From Serratia sp. NPDC078593 (GTDB lineage: Bacteria > Pseudomonadota > Gammaproteobacteria > Enterobacterales > Enterobacteriaceae): DNA of 40,000 nt. Positions 3,126 to 20,968 of the stretch are shown here, piece by piece. Below the pieces are notes generated by a model. That model saw only the letters and a list, made by a program, of their open reading frames with translations. It ran no database searches and had not been told where the DNA came from. Position 1 is the stretch's first letter, and each line of letters starts with the position of its first letter. The stretch is taken from contig NZ_JBNNGK010000005.1 of the NCBI RefSeq assembly GCF_050268245.1, forward strand, positions 258,579 to 298,578. The letters run 5' to 3'. Made by a program: the position numbers and the translations under genes.

Positions 3126-4025
3126 TCACTCTTCATCCTCTGTTTCAGTGCTTACCCGTTTGCCTATATCCTTAAGCTGCGAATATTTCTCCAGCAGCTG
3201 TGGGCCATCATCAAGGCTGGTAGCAAACATCCACATATAGGTCATCACAGCGTAAATATGCCCAGCACTGATCGTGGTCGACTGCGTCATCCAGATAATA
3301 GTCAGGCTAAACAACATGGCGACCAGCACACCAATCGACAGATACCCGATAGCTTCACGATCAGAGAGGCGTATACGTAATTTAGCGAGAGTAGAATAAT
3401 GTCGCTTTAAAGATAACGTTGTAGCCTTAGTAACAAAATCAACCTCCTTTTCAAGACGATTATTGAGCTTGTTATATAGCGTTTCGTTTTTCCGGGCAAA
3501 GCCGGGCAAGAAACAAGCCAAGAAAGCCAGAATGGCCAGGCAGGCAATACCCGCCCAGAATTCGAGAACCAGTAACATCACCGCCGCACCGATCAACGAA
3601 ACTAGCGAAGTGATGAGCATAGGTAAGTGCAATTCAAAGAAATCAACGAACTCTCTCGATAACACCACGCGTGCTGCAACGGTTGAATGATTAAGATTAT
3701 TTTTACGTTGCGACATGGTCACAGAGACAGCCAAGGCAGCATAAATTTTGGCAAAAGTTCGGGTATCCACACTTCTGCGCACCGCCCCCAGGCACCAGAT
3801 AAAGAGGATCATCACCCCATAAAGCACGGCGTTTAATGTCTGGCCGGACAGTATGGCGTTAATGGAGACGCCGGCAAGAATCGGGTACAACAAATAGGTG
3901 ACGTTTTCAGCAACCACCAGCAAAAAAGTAAAGAACAGTTTTTTGCGGTAGCGACTGGCCAGTAGTTTCAAGGTGCCAGAGGCTCTTCCGCTTGTGGAAG
4001 GCACCGGTATTCTTTCAGTGTTCAT
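3126..4025 (-). CDS. Polytopic membrane protein resembling an ABC-exporter transmembrane domain with no ATPase domain (ABC_membrane_3-like)
   Basis: The ORF has about 6 hydrophobic spans and a long cytoplasmic helix region (ETLYNKLNNRLEKEVDFV...), as in type-1 ABC exporter TMDs, but no Walker motifs. I take the start at ATG 4025 (MNTERIP...) rather than 4064 so that both operator repeats stay intergenic. It lies 77 bp upstream of the RND gene. Confidence 0.55.
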   Translation of the reverse strand: MNTERIPVPSTSGRASGTLKLLASRYRKKLFFTFLLVVAENVTYLLYPILAGVSINAILSGQTLNAVLYGVMILFIWCLGAVRRSVDTRTFAKIYAALAVSVTMSQRKNNLNHSTVAARVVLSREFVDFFELHLPMLITSLVSLIGAAVMLLVLEFWAGIACLAILAFLACFLPGFARKNETLYNKLNNRLEKEVDFVTKATTLSLKRHYSTLAKLRIRLSDREAIGYLSIGVLVAMLFSLTIIWMTQSTTISAGHIYAVMTYMWMFATSLDDGPQLLEKYSQLKDIGKRVSTETEDEE

Positions 4026-4047
4026 CAGTGACACTTCTGTTAAAATA

Positions 4048-4094
4048 GAGCAATCGCTCAACAATCAACACATGCTATTTGAGCAATCGCTCAA
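4048..4094. promoter_or_regulatory. Duplicated 14-bp operator-like repeat GAGCAATCGCTCAA in the divergent TetR/efflux promoter region
   Basis: Identical copies lie at 4048-4061 and 4081-4094. The second copy extends to the imperfect palindrome TTGAGC-AATC-GCTCAA. They sit between the divergent starts at 4025 (-) and 4113 (+). Confidence 0.45.
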
Positions 4095-4112
4095 AGTCAA
4101 TGGAGGTGAAGG

Positions 4113-4694
4113 ATGAAAACCAAGTCTGAGTTAATGAGAGATAAAATTCTTAAGGCTGTTGTTGAATTGTTTATCGAGAAAGGTATTGAAAAGGTCACAA
4201 CGCGCGATCTGACAGAATATTTAGGCCTATCTCGCAGCCATATTTATCACTATTTTAAAGACTGGCGGTCCTTGAGTCTCACGGCAGTAACAAACTTTAT
4301 GAACGACGAGCTGGAAGAGTTTCGCACCATTATTGCGCCTTTATCCGCCAGCCAGAAACTACAGGAATTTATTGATGGCATGATTTCCGACGCCCCTGAC
4401 CCAACCCGAAAGCTATATGGTTCTTTATGGCTACTTTCAACTTATGACGACGCCTACGCGAGTCTACTGCAGACTTTTCTGGATGAGTGGCATCAGGTGC
4501 TGACGAACATTATCCAGTCTGGTATGGACGAGCATACGTTTCGCATTGTTGATGCGCAACGCGTAGCGCGGCAGCTGGACGCCATGCTATTCGGTTACGG
4601 GGAACACCTGTTAACCTTACCCTCTGAAAGTTTAGTGAAGCAGACGAAAGAGGATATCGACGATTTTATCCAACAAAATATTATGGCGGGTTGA
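4113..4694 (+). CDS. TetR/AcrR-family transcriptional regulator
   Basis: The N-terminal HTH KILKAVVELFIEKGIEKVTTRDLTEYLGLSRSHIYHYF is typical of TetR_N. GGAGG lies upstream of the ATG, and the gene is divergent from the efflux genes. Confidence 0.9.
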   Translation: MKTKSELMRDKILKAVVELFIEKGIEKVTTRDLTEYLGLSRSHIYHYFKDWRSLSLTAVTNFMNDELEEFRTIIAPLSASQKLQEFIDGMISDAPDPTRKLYGSLWLLSTYDDAYASLLQTFLDEWHQVLTNIIQSGMDEHTFRIVDAQRVARQLDAMLFGYGEHLLTLPSESLVKQTKEDIDDFIQQNIMAG

Positions 4695-5021
4695 AGCCCC
4701 CAGAAGGCAGCCCCTGAACAGCAAAAATTGATCGTTTTCGGCTGAAAATGGTCTGTCGGGTTGTGTATGTACAACGAGTTTACCAACAATATGCACCACG
4801 ATACGCCGGATGCCTATGCCATAATCCGTTCAATTCTTTCGGTGGCGTGCCGTACGAGAGGCTGTATGACGATATAAAAACGTTAATGCTTCACCATTCC
4901 CTTTTGGTACAAATACGACAACGTGGGAAATTAATGAGTAGCGTCAAATCATGTGACGGGTTGAGAGTCCACCGGGTTGCAAAAAGGACGCCGCCCTTCT
5001 TGCAACGATTAGACTTTTTTA

Positions 5022-5213
5022 TTATTTATTCGCCAGCTCGGCCGGTTTAGGCTGTGCCGTCGCAGTGTTAGCCGCACGGTCGTGTTTCTTCTTACCTACA
5101 TTTGAAATCAGGTTAAACACTTCGCCGAGACCATAAATTGCGCCAAGCAATACGGCAACCATCACCGGCACCATAATAAGCACCATGGCTATGCTTTCTA
5201 CTATTTCAATCAC
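5022..5213 (-). CDS. Small (63 aa) single/double-pass membrane protein, function unknown
   Basis: GTG start preceded by GGAG (gcGGAGtgaacaGTG). The hydrophobic N-terminal 35 aa are followed by a Lys-rich hydrophilic tail. No family recognised. Confidence 0.4.
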
Positions 5214-5408
5214 TGTTCACTCCGCATTTAGCGCTGAAAAATCCCCTCCCGTAGAGACAATCATCTCTGAGATTTTTCTTGATAGATTAAGCCTGGCTTA
5301 TCTGTGACTAAAGTGGTCACAAATAAGCGTGGAACAATGTAACTGACACAGTCACATTAGATCAATGCAAAAAAATGCTTTTTAATAGCAGCGTATTCAG
5401 TGCGTGAA

Positions 5409-5882
5409 TTAATGGTGATGATCAGGCAGATTAGCAAACTCACACGGCACAAAGGGATAACCCGCACAGGTTTCAACTTGGCTGACAATATCCGCCATTG
5501 ACGTTTGTGCCAGAGTGGCCTCCATCTGTTGGCTAATGCACGCAAATTCATGCTTCAATACGGGGATAATGGCATGGCCGATATAGCAGGCGTCGTTAGG
5601 TTTCGAGCGATGCAACGGAAAGTACGGCTGTTCCTCCACCGCGTGATAGATATCAAGTAGGCTAATATCACCGGCTGATTTTGCTAATAATGCCCCGCCA
5701 CCTTGCCCCATTTGCGAATGGGTTAGACCCGCGTCTGCCAGTGCACCAAGAATGCGTCGCACGACTGTCGGGTTGGTATTCACACTTCGCGCAATATCTT
5801 CCGAGCGCACCGCCTGCCCACGGAACAACGTAATATGGGTCAGTATGTGAATCGCAACGGCAAAACGGGTTGAGCTAGACAC
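5409..5882 (-). CDS. Rrf2/BadM-family transcriptional regulator
   Basis: The N-terminus STRFAVAIHILTHITLFRGQAVRSEDIARSVNTNPTVVRRILGALADAGL is the Rrf2 winged-helix signature. GTG start. Confidence 0.85.
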   Translation of the reverse strand: MSSSTRFAVAIHILTHITLFRGQAVRSEDIARSVNTNPTVVRRILGALADAGLTHSQMGQGGGALLAKSAGDISLLDIYHAVEEQPYFPLHRSKPNDACYIGHAIIPVLKHEFACISQQMEATLAQTSMADIVSQVETCAGYPFVPCEFANLPDHHH

Positions 5883-6170
5883 GTCGGCACCTGCTAAAAG
5901 GGGTTTTTGTTAGCGCTTGAGAATGACACTTTTGTGACGGAACAGACACATAGTGAATAGGGGCGCGATGAAAGTCAATCAACAGGCCACATAGCGTAAG
6001 CTTTTCGTGCGACTGCTATCTTTATACCCCGTTGCACCAGACGAAACAGAAAATTAAGACTATTACCCTATGTTATTTCTGTGCGGCGAAATACATTCAT
6101 CACAACTTTTATCAAGTCCGTCGCAACGATGCATTATTGATTAATGCCTCAATACTACCAGGAAAAAAAT

Positions 6171-6383
6171 ATGAACATTAAACGTACCGCTGGCATGGCT
6201 GTGTTAATTATTGCAACGTTATCGGTGACGGCCTGTGGCCATATGTCTCACCGCGAACGTAATACCGCTGTAGGTGCCGGTATCGGTGCGCTGGGTGGCG
6301 CAGTATTAACCGATGGCAGCACGTTGGGCACATTAGGCGGCGCTGCATTGGGCGGCGTTATTGGTCACCAAACAGGCCGCTAA
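6171..6383 (+). CDS. osmB: Osmotically inducible lipoprotein OsmB
   Basis: Lipobox LSVTAC, then RERNTAVGAGIGALGGAVLTDGSTLGTLGGAALGGVIGHQTGR, nearly identical to E. coli OsmB. AGGA lies upstream of ATG 6171. Confidence 0.9.
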   Translation: MNIKRTAGMAVLIIATLSVTACGHMSHRERNTAVGAGIGALGGAVLTDGSTLGTLGGAALGGVIGHQTGR

Positions 6384-6421
6384 CCCTTCGGCCTGTTATG
6401 TCCGCTCCGGTAATTTCAAGA

Positions 6422-6457
6422 TCATGTATAGCCGCGAAAAACCGGGGCTATACATGA
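6422..6457. terminator. Bidirectional hairpin between convergent osmB and yagU-like genes
   Basis: Perfect 12-bp inverted repeat TCATGTATAGCC / GGCTATACATGA with a 12-nt loop. It starts 2 nt past the yagU-like stop, and attatttt follows on the plus strand. Confidence 0.55.
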
Positions 6458-6458
6458 A

Positions 6459-7010
6459 TTATTTTGCCCATACGCCCTTTATGGGTTTTGAAAATATCGC
6501 CAGCACCGCGATAAGACTGATTTCAATGGATACAGACCAACAAATATGGCCGATAAGTTCACTCCAAAACTCATACCCATTTAAGTTCCACAACCATCCA
6601 TTCCCCTCGCTAAGGTAGGCAGGATGCCGGAACCCCAAGGCGGGAATTAACAGGCCATGCATGACCAGCGTAATAACAATACCGTATGCCGCACCGTACC
6701 AAAGCCTGATTTTAGGTGTCAGCGCAGAGATAAACACGTATAAGAACGCAAAGGCGAAGCTGAACAGCCAGTGATAAAGCATCACTGCACCGGGGATGGT
6801 TATGCCTTGGTAAACGTAATCCAGCGAGTGGGAATTAACCCCTAGCCATCCGAGCCAGGCGTCAATATTCAGCGCAGGGGGCGACATTTCCCCCGCCACC
6901 CGCGGTGGCATATTGGCTTCCGTCCCCGACTTAACTAACGAGCTAATGAATCCGCCAACTATCGTTGACCACATCAGTATGCGAACGTTGGTTTTATTCC
7001 CTATTTTCAT
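6459..7010 (-). CDS. YagU/DUF1440-family inner membrane protein
   Basis: 183 aa with about 4 TM spans. Segments (KSGTEANMPPR, PKIRLWYG, ELIGHICWSVSIEI) parallel E. coli YagU. Confidence 0.7.
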   Translation of the reverse strand: MKIGNKTNVRILMWSTIVGGFISSLVKSGTEANMPPRVAGEMSPPALNIDAWLGWLGVNSHSLDYVYQGITIPGAVMLYHWLFSFAFAFLYVFISALTPKIRLWYGAAYGIVITLVMHGLLIPALGFRHPAYLSEGNGWLWNLNGYEFWSELIGHICWSVSIEISLIAVLAIFSKPIKGVWAK

Positions 7011-7128
7011 AAATATCCCTTCAATTAAAACGGTTAGTCGAATTTTATGGCTATCATTTTTTGCACATGCGGGCTAAAAGATAAACACCGCCATGCGCTA
7101 GCATGCATGCCCCCGCTTGCTTATCACG

Positions 7129-8847
7129 TTAACCTTTAATGCGTGATATGACATTCAGCGGCTGCGCATCCGGCAAAATATTCATATGTTCAAGCACTTG
7201 TGCCATGATTTTTCCAAATACCGGCCCCGCCACCGAGCCGCCAAAGTGTTTACCCGCTTTCGGGTTATTGATCATTACCACCAGCGCGACTTGTGGATCG
7301 CTGGCTGGCGCAACACCGGCGGTGTAATTGACGTAACCACCGTCATATTTACCGCTGTCGCCCAGTTTTTCGGCAGTACCGGTTTTAATCGCTAAACGGT
7401 AACCCGGCACGGCGGCGCTCACCCCGCTTCCCCCTGGTAAGGCATCACTTTCCATCATGTGCACGACGGATTTCACCACCGCTTCTGGCATAACGCGTTG
7501 CCCAACCACCGGCGGCGTCACTTTGGTGATCGATAACGGGCGGTAAATACCCAACGCGCCGATCGCAGCATATTCACGCGCCATTTGTAGCGGTGTCACC
7601 CGCAGGCCATATCCAAACGAGAAAGTCGCACGTTCGATGTCAGCCCAACGTTGCCGATGCTGCGGCAGATAACCGCTACTTTCATTGCCAATACCCAGTT
7701 CGGTCGGTTTACCCAGGCCAAAGCGTTGATAGACTTCAGGCAACACCGTTGCAGGCATCGCCAAGGCGATATGCGATACCGCAATGTCACTGGATTTTTG
7801 TAGCACGCCGGTAATGCTCAACTTCGACCAGTGCCCCACATCTCGGATCAGATGACCATTCACGCGGTATGGCGTGGTATCCAGAACGGTATCTGGCTGA
7901 ATAAGATGACGATTCAATCCCACCATCACCACGATTGGTTTAACGGTAGAACCCGGCTCAAAACTGTCGCTGCTGCACACGTTGCGGATATTTTTCGACG
8001 GCGTATTGCTGTAGTTGTTGGGGTTAAATGTGGGATAGCTCGCCATACCCAGCACCTCACCCGTGTCGATTTTCACTAATACCGCGCAGCCGGAATCGGC
8101 CTGATTAGCCACCACGCCATCACGGATATGGGCAAACAGGACATACTGGATAAACTTGTCGATACTCAGCGTGATATTGGGCGGCTGTACCGGTTCGATA
8201 TTCTTTAGAACATTGATCACCGCACCGTTAGCGTCTTTTTGATAAACCCGTACGCCGTTCTTGCCTTGTAACAGAGGATTGAATCCCCGCTCGATACCTT
8301 CTAAACCCTGATTATCTTGACCAACGATGCCAATCAGCCCCGCGGCATCCTGCCCCATTGGGTAAAAGCGGCTAAAATCTTGCTCGCTACTGACACCCGT
8401 CAGATGCAGTTTTTTGATGTAATCGGCTTTATCGTCCTCCACTTTACGGGCCAGATAGACGAACCGTTTGCGCGCATTGTGCTGGATCAAGAGCTGGATA
8501 TCAGCCAACGGCATTTCCAGCACATTTGCCAAGCGTTGCCAACGCTCATCGCCGGTATGAGTATGGCTGGCAATAATATGTTTCGGGTCAAGTATGATGT
8601 CTTTCGAGGAAACGCTGACCGCCAAGGCTTGATTATTGCGATCGGTAATCATTCCGCGATTACTTCGGAGCACCTGCGTGCGAACCGAACGCTGATCCGC
8701 CTGATTGGCTAATTGCTGATGCTCCATCAGTTGTAGATAACCCACTCTCAGCATCAGCAGCAGCAAACACGCAATGATCCCGGCGCAGATCCAACCAAAT
8801 CGCAGCGAAGAATAGTTTTTACCGCTTTTTTTAGATGATGGTGCCAC
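7129..8847 (-). CDS. Class B penicillin-binding protein, PBP3 (FtsI)-like paralogue
   Basis: Colinear with E. coli FtsI (RFVYLARKV, YIKKL, FEPGSTVKP, KTGTAEK, GVAPAS). GTG start. Not located in a dcw cluster. Confidence 0.9.
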   Translation of the reverse strand: MAPSSKKSGKNYSSLRFGWICAGIIACLLLLMLRVGYLQLMEHQQLANQADQRSVRTQVLRSNRGMITDRNNQALAVSVSSKDIILDPKHIIASHTHTGDERWQRLANVLEMPLADIQLLIQHNARKRFVYLARKVEDDKADYIKKLHLTGVSSEQDFSRFYPMGQDAAGLIGIVGQDNQGLEGIERGFNPLLQGKNGVRVYQKDANGAVINVLKNIEPVQPPNITLSIDKFIQYVLFAHIRDGVVANQADSGCAVLVKIDTGEVLGMASYPTFNPNNYSNTPSKNIRNVCSSDSFEPGSTVKPIVVMVGLNRHLIQPDTVLDTTPYRVNGHLIRDVGHWSKLSITGVLQKSSDIAVSHIALAMPATVLPEVYQRFGLGKPTELGIGNESSGYLPQHRQRWADIERATFSFGYGLRVTPLQMAREYAAIGALGIYRPLSITKVTPPVVGQRVMPEAVVKSVVHMMESDALPGGSGVSAAVPGYRLAIKTGTAEKLGDSGKYDGGYVNYTAGVAPASDPQVALVVMINNPKAGKHFGGSVAGPVFGKIMAQVLEHMNILPDAQPLNVISRIKG

Positions 8848-10874: not shown

Positions 10875-11196
10875 GGGTGGAGAGTTACCTGTCTGACTGC
10901 ACCTTCCCCAAATAAAAAACAAGGGATTGGAAAGTGGTCAAGGATAACGCGATTGCGGCATGCGCCCCATGAAAAGGTTGCTAATGATGTGGCAGAAATG
11001 TTTCAGCATGTTTAAAAATGTCGATACCTTACAGGATAAGAGCTAACCAACTAAAATATCAGTAAATAAATATTTTACTCAAGTACTGGTATCTACAATT
11101 TATCTTAAAAGAAAAAATGCACGTTGTATTTGGCAATGAGCATATTAGATTCTATAGTTTATTGTTCATCAGTTGAATAAGAATCGCGAGATAAGC

Positions 11197-12750
11197 ATGA
11201 AAGAAAAATTAACTCTGCAACATGTCAACGCTGATACAAAATCACAGAAATCAATATATGATGTCATTATCGTTGGCGCTGGGCCTGCAGGGTTATCTGT
11301 TGCTTCCGAGCTTGCTAAAAAATATCGCGTACTGTTAGTGGATGCGCGAATCGAACCAGAACGCGGTCAAGCTCGAATGCAAAAATCAACGGAGGAAGAA
11401 ATTACAACAAAGAATACTCCAGGTAAGATCAGGAAGTCATGGTTTTGTCCTCATGACTGTCTCTATGACAACCCAGATATTGTTCACTGCCGTAAAGCAA
11501 ATGGAGTCATGCGTTTTTTAGCCAAAACTTATAGTGGGCCAAATGCCAATGAACCCGAGAAATATGATTTAAACTGGCAAAGCAAGCAGTTTGCCAAAGT
11601 ACCCTTGGCAGATCGTTATCCTTACCTTGACGAATATAAGCTTATTGCCCACTGGGAACAAAAAATTATCGACCAGAAGAATGGCTCACATATTAAAAAT
11701 GGGCATATCTATCAAGATCATCGTGTTATTGATGATGGCGTAGAAGTGCGATTTTTGATTAAAGATCCCTCAGGCTACAGCAGTAAATTATACAAAAGTA
11801 GGTTACTACTGGATGCCAGTGGTCATGATTCTGATATTCTAAAAGCTTATAACGAAAAACAAAAACATGTTTACTGGTGGACGGTGTTTGGCGCTATCTG
11901 CCAACATCCTGAAGGAGATATCGTTCGCGAACCAACAGCTGGACATCCGCTGGTAGTTGGCGATTACATGCTCTGGCAAACATTTGCCGATAGTAATGCC
12001 GATCCTTCTACGCCAGTACATCGTGGTCGTCCTATTTTTGAGTATGAAATTTTTGATGAACGAACCAGTTTTCCTTTAGTGCTTTATTTACGCCCCTATA
12101 AAATCTCATTGGAACGCGCAAAAGCAGAGTTCCTCAATATATTAAAGCATGAACCTGCTGCTCAAGCATTCAAGAATGTTCAGATTAAGGAACTCAAATT
12201 TGGTTGTTATCCTTCTGGTGATCTTTTCCGTAGCCGGGCTCAGAATCATGTTGATTTTATCGGCGATGCTGGGTTATGGACAACACCATGCGGCTGGGGA
12301 GCAAGCTTTGTGCTTAAAAACTATGCGTCTTATGCCCAGCAACTCAGTCGGCTTCTTGATGAAAATCGTCTTGATAAAGCATCACTACGCAGTTTAGCCA
12401 AGAAACATTCCAAACACGCGGAGTTTTTCATGAATACTGTTGTAACGCGCTTCCTTTCTTACGGTACGGTGGAACAGCTTGATGGATTCATTGGCCTGTT
12501 TCGTAAAATAGATCCCATCATTTGCGAGCGTATTTTTACCTTACGAGCCGAACCGCATGACCTACTCACCTTTGCACGGGTTCTTTCGCGAGACCTCAGT
12601 ATATTGTCGCTTTTTAAAGCGATGCCTAGACGTGAACGGTTCCATCTTATGACAAATCTAATACAAGCCGTAGCACAGTTTTTAAAAGAAGGAATGATGG
12701 CACGATTGGGGCGTAAACCTGAACGAGGTTTTGGTGTCTTTAAACCCTGA
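11197..12750 (+). CDS. FAD/NAD(P)-binding flavoprotein, lycopene-cyclase / geranylgeranyl-reductase-like family
   Basis: Rossmann motif YDVIIVGAGPAGLSVA, LLLDASGHDS, and C-terminal FIGDAGLWTTPCGWG (GDAxG-type). The alternative TTG start at 11173 is possible. AT-rich codon usage. Confidence 0.65.
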   Translation: MKEKLTLQHVNADTKSQKSIYDVIIVGAGPAGLSVASELAKKYRVLLVDARIEPERGQARMQKSTEEEITTKNTPGKIRKSWFCPHDCLYDNPDIVHCRKANGVMRFLAKTYSGPNANEPEKYDLNWQSKQFAKVPLADRYPYLDEYKLIAHWEQKIIDQKNGSHIKNGHIYQDHRVIDDGVEVRFLIKDPSGYSSKLYKSRLLLDASGHDSDILKAYNEKQKHVYWWTVFGAICQHPEGDIVREPTAGHPLVVGDYMLWQTFADSNADPSTPVHRGRPIFEYEIFDERTSFPLVLYLRPYKISLERAKAEFLNILKHEPAAQAFKNVQIKELKFGCYPSGDLFRSRAQNHVDFIGDAGLWTTPCGWGASFVLKNYASYAQQLSRLLDENRLDKASLRSLAKKHSKHAEFFMNTVVTRFLSYGTVEQLDGFIGLFRKIDPIICERIFTLRAEPHDLLTFARVLSRDLSILSLFKAMPRRERFHLMTNLIQAVAQFLKEGMMARLGRKPERGFGVFKP

Positions 12751-12860
12751 GCCTCTTCGCTCCGAATTATAATACTTCGAATATGTCAAACCAAATACGT
12801 AACCAAGCCTTTGACAGGCTAGTTTGCGACTTTATAGCCTGAAGATTATGAGGTATTCCT

Positions 12861-13919
12861 ATGACGCTAATTGATAATCTGAAAACCTCTCATATTGATA
12901 TGTACCGTTATCAACAAGATATATTACCAAGAGTATCGCGAACCTTTGCTCTAACTATTCCTCAATTGCCTACCCCCTTACGTACAGTAGTAACCAATGC
13001 TTACCTGTTATGCCGAATTGCTGATACGATCGAGGATGAACCAGGATTATCTATCGAACAAAAAATTATTTATGAGGAAAATTTTATCGATGTAGTAACC
13101 GGAAAAGCTGATGCAACAGAATTTATCAACAAACTAAAAAACCAATTAACATCGGCTACTTCGCAAAGTGAAAAGGAACTGTTGTCACGACTTCCATTAA
13201 TATTGGAGGTTACGCAACATCTCAATCCCACTCAACACGCTGCTATTATTGAATGCCTGACAATCATGTCTAAAGGCATGCATGAATTCCAGTCCGTGGT
13301 TGGTTTAACTGGGCTAAAGACCCTGCAGGATTTAGATCAGTATTGCTACTGTGTCGCTGGCGTGGTTGGTGAAATGCTCACCAAATTGTTTATTGACTAT
13401 GATCCTTTACTCTCATGCCATTGCAAAAAGCTTATGTCTCTTGCCATATCATTTGGCCAAGGGCTACAAATGACAAATATTCTAAAAGATCAGTGGGAAG
13501 ACCGCGCTCATGGTGTTTGTTGGCTACCACGTGAAATATTCATTCGTTATGGCATTAAACTTGAAGAACTCCATTCGGGTACGCAAAAGAATAATTATAC
13601 ATTAGCAATGTCCGAACTCATCGGGATTGCCCATGCACACTTGAGGCGTGCTATTGATTATGCGCTGATTGTGTCATCCAGACATGTCGGCATACGGCTT
13701 TTTTGCCTATGGAGTATAGGATTAGCCGTACTAACACTGCGCAATCTGCAAAGCCGTCTCCATTTCACCTCTGGTTCTGAGGTAAAAGTGTCACATTTTG
13801 CTGTTACTGGTACCATCGCCCTGACTAAACTTATCAGTAGATATGAACCTGCCGTACGTGGTCTTTTTTCTCTTGTAACATACCAGTTACCATTAACACC
13901 GTTAACTCGACATCAGTAA
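12861..13919 (+). CDS. Squalene synthase-type farnesyl-diphosphate farnesyltransferase (SQS_PSY family)
   Basis: RVSRTFALTIPQLP...AYLLCRIADTIEDE (first DxxED), YCYCVAGVVGEMLTKLF, and GQGLQMTNILKDQWEDRAHGVCWLPREIF (second DxxED). These resemble single-enzyme eukaryote-like SQS. GAGG RBS. Confidence 0.8.
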   Translation: MTLIDNLKTSHIDMYRYQQDILPRVSRTFALTIPQLPTPLRTVVTNAYLLCRIADTIEDEPGLSIEQKIIYEENFIDVVTGKADATEFINKLKNQLTSATSQSEKELLSRLPLILEVTQHLNPTQHAAIIECLTIMSKGMHEFQSVVGLTGLKTLQDLDQYCYCVAGVVGEMLTKLFIDYDPLLSCHCKKLMSLAISFGQGLQMTNILKDQWEDRAHGVCWLPREIFIRYGIKLEELHSGTQKNNYTLAMSELIGIAHAHLRRAIDYALIVSSRHVGIRLFCLWSIGLAVLTLRNLQSRLHFTSGSEVKVSHFAVTGTIALTKLISRYEPAVRGLFSLVTYQLPLTPLTRHQ

Positions 13920-13963
13920 ACTTATAAAATAAAACCCTATTATATCTTCAACAAGGCAATAAA

Positions 13964-14494
13964 ATGATTGAAGTAATACTCGTTGATGAAAATGATATAC
14001 CACAAGGCACGATGGAGAAATTGGCTGCACATCAGCAAGCTCGACTACACCGTGCTATTTCTGTCTATATTTTTAATACCCAAGGAGAATTACTTCTGCA
14101 ACGGCGTGCTTTAAATAAATATCACGCAGCTGGTTTATGGGGTAATACCTGCTGCAGCCATCCCTATCCTGGAGAAGAGAGTCACAAGGCTGCCTCCCGT
14201 AGGTTACAAGAAGAAATGGGCATGTCATGTCCACTCCAAAAAATTCTAACTTTACGCTATTGCGTAGATGTCGGTGGTGGATTAAGCGAACATGAATTGA
14301 CGCATATATTCATTGGTTTTAGTAACGCTAATCCGATACCTAATGTTGAAGAAGTCGATGCTTTCATCCATATGCCGCTGGATGGTCTTTTATCATCGAT
14401 TAAGACCGAACCCGGTTACTATGCACCTTGGTTTAAATTGTGCTTACCCGATGTTTTAGCTGCGTTATCAAAAAATAAACCAGGCTTTATTTGA
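13964..14494 (+). CDS. idi: Isopentenyl-diphosphate delta-isomerase, type 1 (Nudix fold)
   Basis: LHRAISVYIFNTQGELLLQRRALNKYHAAGLWGNTCCSHPYPGEE and SEHELTHIF align with the E. coli Idi catalytic Cys and Glu regions. Confidence 0.9.
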   Translation: MIEVILVDENDIPQGTMEKLAAHQQARLHRAISVYIFNTQGELLLQRRALNKYHAAGLWGNTCCSHPYPGEESHKAASRRLQEEMGMSCPLQKILTLRYCVDVGGGLSEHELTHIFIGFSNANPIPNVEEVDAFIHMPLDGLLSSIKTEPGYYAPWFKLCLPDVLAALSKNKPGFI

Positions 14495-16095: not shown

Positions 16096-16521
16096 ATGCG
16101 TCAACGGATTATTGTATGCCCAATCATTCAAAATGAAGGGGCCTACTTGCTGTGTAAGATGGCGTCCGATCGCGGCGTTTTTCCCGGGCAATGGGCGCTA
16201 TCTGGCGGCGGAATGGAACCCGGAGAAACGATGGAAGCAGCCTTGAAACGTGAACTGACCGAAGAATTGGGCGGCAATCTGGAGATTATCGACATCAAGC
16301 CATGGACGTTTCGTGATGACATCCGGGTGAAGACCTATGCCGATAAAACTACCGAAGAAATTTACATGATTTACCTCATCTTTGACTGTATCAGTGCTAA
16401 CCGTGACGTGACGTTCAATGAGGAGTTCCAGGAAATCGCCTGGGTAACGCCGGAGGAAATGAAAAACATGGATTTGAATGAGGCAACCCGCATCACGTTT
16501 AGCCAAAAGGGGATTTTGTAA
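16096..16521 (+). CDS. nudI: Nudix hydrolase NudI (nucleoside triphosphatase)
   Basis: [59 protein letters not shown] is near-identical to E. coli NudI and includes the Nudix box. GGAGG RBS. Confidence 0.85.
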
Positions 16522-16852
16522 GGCGTTGCTTGTCTCCCCCAGCCTTAGACGACGGGGAGAGTAATGATATTTGACATTCCTGCTAGCCGAACTGATGAGT
16601 TCAATATCGATATAACCGCATCCGCTCGGTAATACTGCCGCAGCTTCACATACATGGAGAGTTGGTGGCTGCTTTGAGCGAGGAGCAGAAGTTCGCTTAC
16701 AGGGTAACCTAATCCACATGCCAGAGGATCTCTAAAAGAGAATTGTTCGGTTTACCGGGTTACTCACAGTAGTCCCTCACTTTTTGGGACTTCCGGGTTT
16801 TGGTCTCTTCCCAATAATCAGAAATCAGGGAAGAGATCACGTTGGACTTTTG

Positions 16853-17764
16853 TTAGAGGGCTATGTCCCGATATTTTTTTGCGAGATACTCTGCATTGCT
16901 TATCCACTGCCGAGTAATTGTATGTCTGTTTGGCAGGCCGAGAACGGACAGAGATTGATTCCCATTAATTGAATCACCGATTACGTGCGATGAGACGCTG
17001 TCACGAAACGCGACAAGTGCTTGAAAGAAACCGTTCCCTGCTGGTAGGCATTGATACATTTTCAGTCGTAGGGGTGTATCCAGAAAAACGTTATCACTAT
17101 TGTCAAAAGATGACTTAACCAAATGATAGTCATATACCAGTTCGTGGAACGGATCAAAATCAGTGCTATTCACATAGCCACTACTGAAATCCCATTTCTC
17201 TAGCCAGTCTAAATGAGCTACAGGCAGTTTCTGTTCTAAAAGCTGTTTTAGATGGGCAAACTGTTCCCCCATAGCGTTTGGATCTAACTGAATTACTGAC
17301 GTAAATTGTACTTCAGGGAAATAACGCTGCCGTGCAAAGAGCGGCAAAAAATTAATATTCTCTAGCTGGCTCCAGTAACGAATATGAACTTTAAATGAGG
17401 TGCCATCTTTACGAGTATGTGTCAGATAGCCATCAGGCATTGCATTCTGAATTGAAGTATGTGGACTCGCAGTCGTCAGTAAAAAATAGTGCCGTATCGG
17501 GTGAGGATAAGTATCAGTTTTTTTCAGCTCAACTCCTAAGTTTTCCAAGGTAAAAGGGCGTGAATACCATTTGCATTGTGCCACCACTGGTAGTGTGTTT
17601 ATAGGCCAACTTATAATATCAACTCCGCCCTGCGCCTGGCCTGGTGAACCAAAACAAGCGAAACTCACGTTGCTACCTACACTTTTACTTACGATTTCTG
17701 TCATCCACCAACAACAAAAATCTTCAAAGTCTGTTGCAGAGCGAAAATTCAGGTTACGCATCAC
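16853..17764 (-). CDS. Mrr-like PD-(D/E)xK restriction-endonuclease-fold protein with unknown C-terminal domain (303 aa)
   Basis: N-terminal FEDFCCWW...FGSPGQAQGGVDIIS...VVAQCKWYSRP...HYFLLTTAS...IRYWSQLENI fits the Mrr_cat pattern (E14, D49, Q63-x-K65). Residues ~150-303 are unrecognised. Very AT-rich. Confidence 0.65.
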   Translation of the reverse strand: MMRNLNFRSATDFEDFCCWWMTEIVSKSVGSNVSFACFGSPGQAQGGVDIISWPINTLPVVAQCKWYSRPFTLENLGVELKKTDTYPHPIRHYFLLTTASPHTSIQNAMPDGYLTHTRKDGTSFKVHIRYWSQLENINFLPLFARQRYFPEVQFTSVIQLDPNAMGEQFAHLKQLLEQKLPVAHLDWLEKWDFSSGYVNSTDFDPFHELVYDYHLVKSSFDNSDNVFLDTPLRLKMYQCLPAGNGFFQALVAFRDSVSSHVIGDSINGNQSLSVLGLPNRHTITRQWISNAEYLAKKYRDIAL

Positions 17765-17883
17765 AGTTCTCTAAAATCATCCCAAGAAGTGATTATCTCC
17801 TATTCCAGCCATGTACGCAATTTCCGATTATAATCATCGTGATAGTTCTCAGTTGCCCACAAAATCAATGGTAGAGTATTAAA

Positions 17884-18564
17884 TTAAATGAACTTATCGT
17901 TCATGAATCCACCGCATATTAAATTTTGCATGTGGATGTAAAATTCCCACCTTGCAAGATTTCTCTTTTTTTTGTGCGTATTAAGTGAAGGCTGCAGCCA
18001 ATAAATCAACTGTGACTCAATACTATCTAAAATATCAAGTGCTACATGTTCAGGCTGTATCCAATCAAGAGAAATATATTCGTTATCAATATAAAACCAA
18101 GCGGTGCATCTGTAGATATGTTTTGACTTACTTTGGTACTCAGGTGCATGTAACTTCAATGCTGCGCTATGACCACCATTGAAGCGCGATGTATTTTTTG
18201 TCTTTCCAACATAGACCAGTTCTTCATCATCTCCATCACCACAAGATATCAGGTAGATGGGTAGTGATGGTAAGGGGGCTTCACCCAATTCAGTTAAGAT
18301 TTCTTCCTGCTCCCATCTGTCAAGCCATCCGCCTTCAAGTCCCCTAATGAGTTCACTAGCACTATCTAAGTAGGACTGGGTATTTGCTCTGGCGTCTTTA
18401 AGGCTCAACCACTGCATACTCATTACCAAGTGAAGGGGTTCGCATTCCTCGATTGAAATCCAACAGGACCAATCTGGGGTGGGGACATCTATGTGTCCCG
18501 GGGTATAAAAACGCTCTGGTATAGGCTGACGCCGGTCAAGCCACCCTTTCAAAGGATTGAGCAT
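17884..18564 (-). CDS. GIY-YIG-like nuclease-domain protein with unknown N-terminal domain (226 aa)
   Basis: PIYLISCGDGDDEELVYVGKTKNTSRFNGGH ... LDSIESQLIYWLQPSLNTHKK reproduces the GIY / YxG / R / E / N landmarks (Y104, Y118, R127, E183, N195). Residues 1-100 are unrecognised. Very AT-rich. Confidence 0.6.
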   Translation of the reverse strand: MLNPLKGWLDRRQPIPERFYTPGHIDVPTPDWSCWISIEECEPLHLVMSMQWLSLKDARANTQSYLDSASELIRGLEGGWLDRWEQEEILTELGEAPLPSLPIYLISCGDGDDEELVYVGKTKNTSRFNGGHSAALKLHAPEYQSKSKHIYRCTAWFYIDNEYISLDWIQPEHVALDILDSIESQLIYWLQPSLNTHKKKRNLARWEFYIHMQNLICGGFMNDKFI

Positions 18565-18904
18565 GTATTCTATATCTCAACGTTTATTTAATGTTAAAAG
18601 AAACTAGGCAAGTTTGTATCTTGTAATCTAAATGTCATTTATTGGGTATGTCTACCAAATTAAATTGATACAGCTTAACAGGTGTAATGTCCGCTCCTGG
18701 CACACAACGGACTGCTCGGCCAAAATGCTTTGGCGCTGTATTTACATTCAGGATTATTGCTGTTCTGCTTTTACCCGGAGTAGGGTTTGCCGGGAGGTAT
18801 TACATTCCCCGGTGATCGCACTGATACTGCCCCCGGCATTAATGCGCCCTACCACTATTTTTTGATCCTTATAGATCCGGCAATACATCGCACCCGCCCG
18901 TAAA

Positions 18905-20968
18905 TCAGCGGGCGGCGATCCCCATTTTCTTCATCCGCGAAAGTAAGGTGGTGCGCTTTAATCCCAACTTTTGCGCTGCGCCACGCGGGCCGGCCACCAC
19001 GCCGTTGGTTTCTTTCAACACGCGCACAATACGGTGATATTCATCCTCTTGCGTCGGCTGCGATGGCGGCGCGGTCATCAAGGGCGTGGTGGGTTGTGAA
19101 TAATGCAGTTCTGGCAGTTGCAGATTAAGCACCGTACCGCGCGTCAGTAACACCGCACGTTCAATCACATTTTCCAACTCACGTACGTTGCCCGGCCACG
19201 GCATTTGGCTGAGCTGGCGCAGCGTTTCTGCCGGAATACTGTCGATGGTGCGCTTCATGCGGCGCGCAATTTTATAAGTGAGAAACTTCACCAACTGCGG
19301 AATATCTTCCGGTCGCTCGCGTAATGGCGGAATCACGATCGGGAACACATTCAGCCGATAATAGAGATCGCTACGAAACTCACGGTCAGCAACCATTTGT
19401 TGCAGATCGCGGTTCGTTGCCGCAATCAAACGTACGTCGACGGAGATCAGTTTATTGCCGCCTACCCGTTCAAATTCCCGCTCTTGCAGCACCCGAAGTA
19501 ATTTGGGTTGTAACTCGACCGGGATTTCCCCGACTTCATCCAAAAACAGTGACCCTTTATCAGCCAGTTCAAAACGCCCCATGCGCTGGGCCGTCGCCCC
19601 GGTGAACGCCCCTTTCTCATGACCGAAGAGGTCACTTTCCAGCAGCCCGGCAGGCATCACCGCACAATTCATCTTCACCATTCGCTGATCGCGTCGCTCA
19701 CTCAAGTTGTGAATAGCGCGAGCGATCAACTCCTTGCCCGTACCGGTTTCGCCAAGGATCAGCACGGAGCAATCGCTTTTCGCGACCATTTCCACCTGTT
19801 TCAGCACGCTAGACATCACCAGACTGCGGCCAACAATCTCGCTAAAATCAGGACTATTATCGTTAATTTGCTCGGTGAGATAGAGATTCTCATGCACCAG
19901 ACTCTCTTTCAGTCGGTTGATTTCCTGGTAAACCAAGGCATTATCCACCGCGATGGCGATACGCTCGGCAATCTGTTGCAAGACACGCAAATTTGCAGCA
20001 TTAAAATTATCAGGCTGACATTGCGCCAATTTCAGCACGCCCAGCGTTTTTTGGCCGAAAGTCAGGGGCAGCACGCATAGCGTTTGGATCTGTTCATGCC
20101 ATAAATCAAACAGTTGCCGTTCATACTCTGCCAGCGAATCGGAATGTTTTAGATTCAGCAGCAACATTTCGCCACTCTGCATCACTTTCTCCGACAGCGT
20201 TCCAGCTAGCGGAACATTATATTGCTGGCGTTCAGCAACGTTGTTCTTCAGGTAATGGGTGGCGTAGATCGTCACCCGATCGTCACGATCCCCCGGCAAG
20301 ACAATGCTGATGGCATCCGTTTTGAAAAAACGGTGGATCTCGGTTGAAATCTCGCCGATCAGGTCATCCAGATCCAGCTTGGACAAAACCGCGTTGGTCA
20401 CATCCACCAGTACGCGATAGTCATCTCGCTCGTGGCGTAGCTGGCGTTGCTGCTGCTCTGCGGTTTCACGCAGTTGGATCTGCTCTACCGCCAGCGAGGT
20501 CAACTCCATCAGACCAGTCAACTGGCTAAGCGCTGCGTCACTGAACGGTTTGTCATTATTGCGCAGCAGTTCACAGCCACCGAGCAGCTGCCCGCCGGTA
20601 TACAGCGGTGCAAGGCAGTAATGGCTCAATGGCGGATGCAAGGCCAGCGCCGTCATCTGCGGATATCTCTGCTGCAATTCGAGGGATGTCATGCGCAACG
20701 GTTGCGGTTGGGTGCGTAAATGGGCGATTGGCCCGTTCGCCAACAGCGTCTCGTCTTGATAAGTTAACGGCTGCCCATGCACATCCTGGCCGTGGTAACT
20801 GACCCGTGCGCTGTGCGGATGCAACAGCAGTAACGTAACCTCCTCCGCTAGCCGCCAGCGCTGTACGATGTCTTTCAACTGTACCAATAGATCGCTAAAG
20901 CTGTGCTGGCTGAGTAATAAACGGGTAATTTCTAACAGTTGCTGTTTTTCTCTACTTGCGTTCGACAT
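18905..20968 (-). CDS. fhlA: Formate hydrogenlyase transcriptional activator FhlA (sigma54-dependent, GAF-GAF-AAA+-HTH)
   Basis: 687 aa. AAA+ core VLILGETGTGKELIARAIH, GAFTGA, and ESDLFGHEKGAFTG; C-terminal HTH AAQKLGLKRTTLLSRMKKMGI. Length and order match E. coli FhlA, downstream of hypE. Confidence 0.95.
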   Translation of the reverse strand: MSNASREKQQLLEITRLLLSQHSFSDLLVQLKDIVQRWRLAEEVTLLLLHPHSARVSYHGQDVHGQPLTYQDETLLANGPIAHLRTQPQPLRMTSLELQQRYPQMTALALHPPLSHYCLAPLYTGGQLLGGCELLRNNDKPFSDAALSQLTGLMELTSLAVEQIQLRETAEQQQRQLRHERDDYRVLVDVTNAVLSKLDLDDLIGEISTEIHRFFKTDAISIVLPGDRDDRVTIYATHYLKNNVAERQQYNVPLAGTLSEKVMQSGEMLLLNLKHSDSLAEYERQLFDLWHEQIQTLCVLPLTFGQKTLGVLKLAQCQPDNFNAANLRVLQQIAERIAIAVDNALVYQEINRLKESLVHENLYLTEQINDNSPDFSEIVGRSLVMSSVLKQVEMVAKSDCSVLILGETGTGKELIARAIHNLSERRDQRMVKMNCAVMPAGLLESDLFGHEKGAFTGATAQRMGRFELADKGSLFLDEVGEIPVELQPKLLRVLQEREFERVGGNKLISVDVRLIAATNRDLQQMVADREFRSDLYYRLNVFPIVIPPLRERPEDIPQLVKFLTYKIARRMKRTIDSIPAETLRQLSQMPWPGNVRELENVIERAVLLTRGTVLNLQLPELHYSQPTTPLMTAPPSQPTQEDEYHRIVRVLKETNGVVAGPRGAAQKLGLKRTTLLSRMKKMGIAAR

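Follow-up and report, generated by a model that had tools for sequence, protein, structure and literature searches.

CMoRE is a single-protein type IV, modification-dependent enzyme, defined by an N-terminal GIY-YIG domain, a C-terminal sensing domain and a GIYxY-YIG motif (PMC12923530), and PD-T4-3, PD-lambda-1 and Uzume are single-gene GIY-YIG defence systems (bioRxiv 10.1101/2024.10.26.620412). LmuA, the effector of Lamassu, is built from an effector domain, a linker and a helical C-terminal domain that mediates docking and tetramerisation (bioRxiv 10.1101/2025.04.02.646746). Here we describe two neighbouring genes of Serratia sp. NPDC078593 that resemble these two kinds of protein. They lie in a stretch of 40,000 nucleotides (nt) of contig NZ_JBNNGK010000005.1, which is called the window below and to which all coordinates refer unless a locus is named. 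The first open reading frame (ORF), ORF-A (17884..18564, minus strand), encodes a stand-alone GIY-YIG family protein of 226 amino acids (aa) from an ATG start. The second, ORF-B (16853..17761, minus strand), encodes a protein of 302 aa with an N-terminal Mrr/LmuA-like PD-(D/E)xK nuclease domain. Both families are uncharacterised. ORF-A matches no named defence system, and ORF-B matches LmuA only weakly, with its nuclease domain, and has no LmuB or LmuC.

Like CMoRE, PD-T4-3, PD-lambda-1 and Uzume, ORF-A is one protein in which GIY-YIG is combined with a non-catalytic domain, and it is carried on mobile DNA without a methylase or partner. It differs from CMoRE in its reversed domain order, as GIY-YIG is C-terminal, and in its motif PIYLIS, with an invariant I106 where CMoRE has a third Tyr. 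The predicted catalytic fold and the catalytic residues are also shared with Eco29kI, Hpy188I, I-TevI and Seg; unlike the type II restriction-modification (R-M) enzymes Eco29kI and Hpy188I, ORF-A has no cognate methylase in its cassette, and unlike homing endonucleases it shows no recurrent insertion site. Its domain order is also unlike that of I-TevI, since in I-TevI and Seg GIY-YIG is N-terminal and the DNA-binding domain C-terminal. ORF-B in turn resembles LmuA (Lamassu, Mrr and Cap4 subtypes) in its length of about 300 aa and in its predicted layout of an N-terminal PD-(D/E)xK domain, a linker and a helical C-terminus. However, neither an SMC-like LmuB nor LmuC was found next to ORF-B, be it in the window or across eight contexts, and the LmuA model leaves the C-terminal domain unmatched and gives modest E-values. 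With Mrr-type type IV enzymes ORF-B shares the E...D...(Q/E)xK motif and the lack of a methylase, the homology being only transitive via Mrr_cat (PF04471) or Mrr_cat_2 (PF13156) relatives. The catalytic domain of E. coli Mrr is C-terminal, behind a winged-helix reader, whereas that of ORF-B is N-terminal and has an unrelated helical domain behind it. Some NACHT/STAND (Avs-like) and TPR-PIN proteins begin with the same nuclease domain, but ORF-B is short and two-domain, without an NTPase or a repeat sensor. The non-catalytic regions of ORF-A and ORF-B match no known modification-reader domain.

A sequence-only reading of this locus had proposed that the two genes form a single defence module. 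Comparison of related loci splits the pair at a defined junction, and we lean, by a small measure, towards two stacked, independent single-protein nuclease defence candidates and not one two-gene system.

Separability of the two genes

ORF-A and ORF-B are co-oriented on the minus strand with a gap of 119 bp measured from the GTG of ORF-B, and a GC scan of the window gave a GC fraction of 0.36-0.46 across 16.8-18.6 kb and 0.49-0.60 in the flanks. The islet is bordered by a NUDIX gene ending at 16521 and by a sigma-54/GAF FhlA-like activator ending at 18905, which is followed by HypE. The ORF list and the GC scan thus bear out the arrangement first described, and the labels nudI and fhlA given to the flanking genes are reasonable. 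Contiguous blastn matches and the low GC delimit an acquired cassette of about 2.05 kb (16666..18712) with both genes, and the ORF list shows no other gene in it. Prophage loci of Yersinia enterocolitica (L011-L013) match 16666-18712 contiguously at 91.2% nucleotide identity, and a further locus with an adjacent integrase (L021) matches 16671-18704 at 94.5%. The copies in the window, in the Yersinia prophage and in L021 each stand in a different genomic context, which supports the earlier view that the islet is horizontally acquired DNA. As had also been stated, the islet holds no methyltransferase, NTPase, integrase or transposase; in addition, the (D/N/S)PP(Y/F/W) amino-methyltransferase motif is absent from every ORF of at least 150 aa in the window.

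The ORF-A unit gives way to the ORF-B unit at a junction placed at 17844 (17844..17844), where homology to an ORF-A-only locus ends. This locus, from Rouxiella silvae (L001), carries ORF-A and its upstream region only and matches 18703-17844 at 92% nucleotide identity, ending 40 bp past the ORF-A stop, and the block conserved 5' of ORF-B begins just below 17844. Lone copies of ORF-A at 90-91% aa identity are present in R. silvae and in an IMG/VR contig (L030, 91%). Among 18 ORF-A loci (10 from genomes, 8 from viral contigs) not one has an ORF-B-family ORF within 5-6 kb, as judged by hmmsearch of all ORFs with the family profile. ORF-B, for its part, persists without an intact ORF-A in four lineages, where at most a 3' stub is left, and in one frameshift case. 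Edwardsiella plasmids, E. coli contigs and Plesiomonas have kept no more than the last ~40-120 nt of ORF-A next to an intact ORF-B, in Providencia an insertion sequence (IS) lies upstream and ~40 bp of the ORF-A 3' end are left with ORF-B intact, and in L021 ORF-A is frameshifted and ORF-B intact. ORF-A has been lost or broken beside an intact ORF-B at least three times independently. No GIY-YIG gene adjoins either of the two distant ORF-B relatives whose surroundings could be read.

The ~75 bp 5' of the ORF-B start hardly vary among the seven aligned lineages, ORF-A-less ones among them, and this conserved upstream block suggests that ORF-B has its own promoter. A promoter-like block 5' of ORF-B (17792..17820, minus strand) was read by eye as a -35-like TTGCGT, a 17-nt spacer and a -10-like GATAAT, hexamers that fall below the threshold of the promoter scan. 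The promoter-like site 5' of ORF-A (18625..18654, minus strand; TAGACA-18-TAGATT, matching the consensus at only 9 of 12 positions) falls within an upstream block of ~140 bp that travels together with ORF-A in L001, L013 and L021.

As ORF-A stands alone in 18/18 loci and ORF-B survives the loss of ORF-A, co-occurrence, which had been named beforehand as one of the refuting checks, fails beyond one recently spread cassette lineage. Together with the upstream block of ORF-B this speaks against the proposed single module. The simplest reading would be two autonomous units, 18712-17844 and 17843-16666, which became adjacent once in an enterobacterial lineage and then travelled and decayed together. 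A toxin-immunity pair, with ORF-A as toxin and ORF-B as immunity protein, was rejected because ORF-A is common without ORF-B in the loci sampled.

Among 5,426 complete E. coli genomes one carries the pair, with both genes interrupted by IS1 and ISSen4. This copy (L038, NZ_CM194533.1 368862-381945) lies inside an integrase-bounded island with a 583-aa caspase-family (Peptidase_C14) protein and several hypotheticals, which looks like a decaying defence island.

The two putative nuclease families

The GIY-YIG catalytic domain of ORF-A (about residues 97-200; 17965..18276, minus strand) was assigned from invariant residues, Pfam, predicted topology and Foldseek. An alignment of 42 relatives, the most distant at 36% identity, shows no variation at Y104, Y118, G120, R127, H132, E183 and N195; these positions include all five landmarks named from the sequence alone (Y104, Y118, R127, E183 and N195), and the GIY-YIG tyrosines, Arg, Glu and Asn stand in canonical order. 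The Pfam GIY-YIG match (PF01541) of ORF-A from the window is sub-threshold (E=0.012, 16.3 bits against a cutoff of 22.6, residues 103-192). Its relatives match at E<0.1 to GIY_YIG_2 (PF20815) in 29/42 cases and to PF01541 in 21/42, with a best value of 7.8e-5; two relatives have a precomputed PF20815 match and one weakly matches Pfam RE_Eco29kI. The AlphaFold2 model of ORF-A is of high confidence (predicted local distance difference test, pLDDT, 92; predicted template modelling score, pTM, 0.88) and has the order beta-beta-alpha-beta-alpha in the GIY-YIG domain. In a Foldseek search against viral models (BFVD) the top matches are mostly GIY-YIG endonucleases, with weak E-values of 0.02-0.3. 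Membership of ORF-A in the GIY-YIG fold class is supported by these sequence and model comparisons.

An extra domain without a recognised family had been suspected in each of the two proteins, and both are present. In ORF-A it comprises the N-terminal ~96 residues (18277..18564, minus strand), which are conserved in the 42-relative alignment, among other things at L5, P14, R18, L55, Y65, I73, L81 and D82. This region has no Pfam, NCBIfam or PADLOC match, and its sole profile match, to a DUF1778 antitoxin chain, is non-significant (E=0.41). The family as a whole comprises 99 homologous clusters across Proteobacteria, Desulfobacterota and Bacillota, with hosts including Enterobacterales, Burkholderia, Acinetobacter, Pseudomonas, Halodesulfovibrio and Bacillota. 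Protein identity is 60-75% across bacterial classes, and conservation extends along the whole length and across phyla. ORF-A was assigned to phrog_16890 (function unknown) with E=4e-69, and a tblastn search with ORF-A against 50,697 deposited phage genomes gave no match. The ratio of nonsynonymous to synonymous substitution rates (dN/dS) is 0.07-0.28 for ORF-A and 0.27-0.56 for ORF-B; both genes are under purifying selection, ORF-B less strongly.

For ORF-B, 302 aa is the likelier product, because all relatives start at the ATG equivalent to 17761 and not at the GTG at 17764, which would give 303 aa. Its Mrr/LmuA-like PD-(D/E)xK nuclease domain (about residues 4-154; 17300..17752, minus strand) was delimited by invariant residues, the LmuA model and profile matches. 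In 33 relatives, down to 23% identity, D48, Q62 and K64 are invariant and E13 nearly so, which in the 303-aa numbering are the residues D49, Q63, K65 and E14 picked out at first sight. Neither ORF-B nor any of 10 close relatives has a direct Pfam match to Mrr_cat or Mrr_cat_2. The N-termini of remote relatives score on one or other of these two profiles near or above the cutoff. NCBIfam gave no match for either protein and PDB sequence-profile searches nothing meaningful for either family. In PADLOC, ORF-A remained without a match, and ORF-B found the effector domain of LmuA and no named system: the LmuA model PDLC03852 is matched by 10/10 close members (best E=3.3e-7) with its positions 15-174 of 336 only, corresponding to the N-terminal ~170 aa of ORF-B, and the C-terminal domain is not covered.

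An exhaustive hidden Markov model search with the ORF-B profile returned ~30 full-length relatives at 23-41% identity and hundreds of proteins that share the N-terminal domain alone. The latter domain stands at the N-terminus of NACHT and TPR-PIN proteins of 1000-1600 aa (E ~1e-10 to 1e-12), and this spread is a typical defence-effector distribution. The close relatives fall into nine clusters, all from Enterobacterales including Plesiomonas, and in IMG/VR there was no match to ORF-B. The AlphaFold2 model of ORF-B is weak (pLDDT 66) and shows an alpha-beta-beta-beta-alpha-beta core (H10-29, E34-38, E48-53, E60-65, H73-85, E92-97) followed by an all-helical C-terminal half. From this model and conserved motifs we delimited a helical C-terminal domain of unknown family (about residues 160-302; 16856..17284, minus strand), which carries LxWLExWDFSxGY, CLPAG..FF.AL and LA..YR in the full-length family; searches of its sequence against Pfam and PDB gave no match. 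All 16 of the ORF-B loci retrieved (L011-L026) have an intact copy of the gene. The sequence comparisons support an Mrr/LmuA-type PD-(D/E)xK fold of the ORF-B N-terminus.

In the E. coli/Plesiomonas lineage ORF-B has a short C-terminal extension and is followed, 35-38 bp 3' of it, by a co-oriented gene of 190-191 aa (L022:6953-7528, L025:6956-7528), which the window does not have. This gene has no Pfam or PHROG match and may be a lineage-specific partner or neighbouring cargo.

Genomic company and surroundings of the cassette

In the Yersinia prophage the pair occupies the moron stretch that separates the Q antiterminator from the lysis genes. Relatives of ORF-A adjoin GajA/GajB, Old, a DndB-like gene, PDC-S06 and a type I methylase, lie beside Tn7-like genes, or are found in P2-like prophages with the tail-fibre-assembly gene on one side and the tail-sheath gene on the other, the position of the P2 Z/fun locus. 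Z/fun is listed as a defence locus of P2 (PMC13586616). ORF-B adjoins FRG and GmrSD_N genes within an integrase-AlpA-primase island, has an integrase and a SMEK_N gene as neighbours at another locus and is near BrxR at a further one; a distant relative of it is inside Tn7-like cargo. Neither family adjoins a cognate methylase as a rule in the contexts examined, and both keep the company expected of defence or exclusion genes.

Several loci hold further neighbours. In three P2-like prophage contigs (L031, L033, L034) the ORF-A relative shares its tail-fibre/sheath accessory locus with a convergent 511-aa protein (phrog_13820, function unknown; 6054-7589, minus strand). In two unrelated viral contigs, L030 (UViG_3300048927_000336, 3170-7572) and L036, it lies directly beside a umuD/umuC-like (Y-family polymerase) operon, and in L030 ORF-A stands alone between two such operons; a small conserved ORF of 80-83 aa is located nearby, downstream in L030 and upstream in L036. 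The most distant ORF-B relative with context (25% identity) comes from Paucibacter sp. R3-3 (L027:4996-5913), where a co-oriented gene 88 bp upstream encodes a 305-aa protein that weakly matches an OGG-like DNA glycosylase (E=0.005) and the Tn7-like locus also holds repeated Metallophos and HAD_SAK_2 gene pairs.

We also inspected the ends and the surroundings of the cassette. Just 3' of the ORF-B stop a hairpin with 12-nt arms, 92% complementary, and a 15-nt loop (16801..16839, minus strand) is also seen in the RNA fold; no U-run follows it, and it would be a putative terminator. Around 16666 and 18712 there is no convincing target-site duplication or terminal inverted repeat. Inspection of both 3' regions speaks against an integron gene cassette, as these showed no GTTRRRY/RYYYAAC pair, no long imperfect palindrome and no attC-like repeats. 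Deposited phage genomes have no DNA-level match to the cassette. The exact NudI protein is not on record, and 80 metagenomic nudI relatives (76-84% aa identity) have no true fhlA, ORF-A or ORF-B within 5 kb, two of these loci having an upstream sigma-54-domain match to fhlA at 29% identity only; among the nudI relatives searched we found no empty-site comparator for the nudI-fhlA junction.

Homology of the cassette starts at the outer edge of a conserved non-coding element of ~100 bp (16661..16770), the core of which is TGAGCGAGGAGCGGAAGTTCGCTTACAGGGTAACCTAATCCACATGCCAGAGGATCTCTAAAAGAGAA. This element recurs at 74-84% identity in unannotated DNA of >25 large enterobacterial plasmids from Klebsiella, Raoultella, Citrobacter, Pantoea and Cedecea. 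It is single-copy in ~25 of the 5,426 E. coli genomes and thus not like the enterobacterial repetitive intergenic consensus (ERIC) in copy number. Its neighbours in E. coli and Pantoea are a 200-aa tyrosine recombinase on one side and a 366-aa hypothetical gene on the other. An IS110-family transposase follows it after 100 bp in a K. quasipneumoniae IncHI2 plasmid, and in pB431_1 it comes 340 bp past an IS21-like element. The element may serve as a target for recombination or insertion, or it may be a piece of a mobile element. It was rejected as an RNA, with no Rfam match, a fold z-score of -1.6 and no covariation on either strand.

Further away in the window, 11173-14494 includes a second lower-GC stretch (GC 0.39-0.45 at 13.0-14.6 kb) and encodes a flavoprotein whose N-terminus weakly matches lycopene-cyclase/Thi4-type proteins, together with a phytoene/squalene synthase and another NUDIX protein; these make up a small isoprenoid/carotenoid-like cluster next to the islet. 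An LprI lysozyme-inhibitor gene and a GNAT gene come after that cluster.

Competing explanations and implications

If the two genes act independently, as we lean towards, the cassette would consist of two separable single-gene units arranged head to tail, each with its own upstream region. Unit A would be a stand-alone GIY-YIG nuclease with a family-specific conserved N-terminus of ~100 residues, and unit B an Mrr/LmuA-type PD-(D/E)xK domain followed by a helical C-terminal domain. Each protein would be a self-contained sensor and nuclease that cuts invading phage or plasmid DNA alone, like known single-protein defence nucleases. As there is no methyltransferase, it would fall to the non-catalytic part of each protein to tell self from non-self. 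This could be achieved by recognising a feature of foreign DNA, for example modified bases in the style of type IV enzymes, or by trigger-dependent activation, in which ORF-B would perhaps oligomerise via its C-terminal domain in analogy to LmuA. Type IV (modification-dependent) restriction, raised as an alternative in the sequence-only reading, remains open for each gene separately.

Several observations weigh against such an interpretation. A constitutively active nuclease without an immunity gene would need a discrimination mechanism. PADLOC v2 includes models for PD-T4, PD-lambda and Uzume, and even with E allowed up to 10 ORF-A found none of the PADLOC models; for ORF-B the PADLOC match is only weak and to an effector domain. 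Foldseek of ORF-A against solved structures recovered no GIY-YIG fold, and the best Foldseek matches of ORF-B (EcoT38I, Cap4 and MspJI) are non-significant (E 0.2-0.5) and come from a low-confidence model. The association with defence islands is qualitative, covering ~25 loci, and is not an enrichment statistic. The contexts of distant ORF-B relatives rest on two loci, and every close ORF-B relative descends from a copy that was once downstream of ORF-A. A past functional link between the two genes may therefore have existed. All close ORF-B relatives carry ORF-A or its remnant upstream.

This shared arrangement also speaks for a joint system, in which, for instance, sensing or nicking would be the task of one protein and degradation that of the other, both being needed together. 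The two genes are, moreover, co-oriented and 119 bp apart, the site scan found no terminator-like site between them, and the joint cassette occurs in at least three contexts in addition to the IS-disrupted E. coli copy. We nevertheless consider such a system very unlikely, as ORF-A is alone in 18/18 sampled loci outside the cassette lineage, including copies of 90-91% identity, and ORF-B has stayed intact and conserved after at least three independent losses or breaks of ORF-A, with its own conserved upstream block and with two distant relatives that have no GIY-YIG neighbour. Cooperation of the two proteins when adjacent is unlikely as well. Slightly different evidence bears on the idea that one or both genes are selfish, as free-standing homing-endonuclease-like or addiction elements which would spread through DNA cutting followed by copying or retention, without benefit to the host. 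ORF-A forms a compact unit of ~860 bp (17844-18703) that is inserted as a single gene, with unrelated genes on either side, in hosts that differ widely, GIY-YIG is a fold typical of homing endonucleases, the BFVD matches are mostly phage GIY-YIG or homing endonucleases and the family is present in PHROGs. Against this, the insertion contexts are wholly different with no recurrent target site, neither flanking repeats nor target duplications were seen, I-TevI and Seg have a different domain order, the 50,697 deposited phage genomes gave no tblastn match and the neighbours are often defence genes, so that we regard a selfish element as unlikely.

That the genes are decaying, functionless leftovers of an R-M or other system, an alternative already mentioned in the sequence-only reading, deserves the least credence. 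It would fit with the absence of a methylase or other partner, with the frameshifted, truncated or IS-disrupted ORF-A in several cassette copies and with the fairly fast evolution of ORF-B (dN/dS up to 0.56). However, both ORFs of the window are full length with all catalytic residues intact, their dN/dS is below 1, ORF-A is strongly constrained (0.07-0.28) and conserved over its full length across phyla, ORF-B is intact in 16/16 loci (L011-L026) and a cognate methylase is not a regular neighbour. Returning to two independent defence candidates, a more specific version would make the ORF-A family a widespread single-protein GIY-YIG immune nuclease with a new N-terminal sensor and ORF-B a free-living LmuA-type effector without an SMC sensor, which would reveal how effectors of the Lamassu type can work, or arose, as autonomous units; this is possible, and we would sooner bet against it.

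The locus itself advises caution, as adjacent nuclease genes in an AT-rich islet need not form a system and comparison of their contexts can split such a pair at a defined junction. If either protein protects alone, a compact one-gene nuclease system would be added to the defence catalogue, with a sensing part that matches nothing known. ORF-A would then be the more useful of the two, as its family is broad, strongly conserved and present in known prophage defence hotspots. ORF-B would then be of interest as a Lamassu-like effector without an SMC partner.

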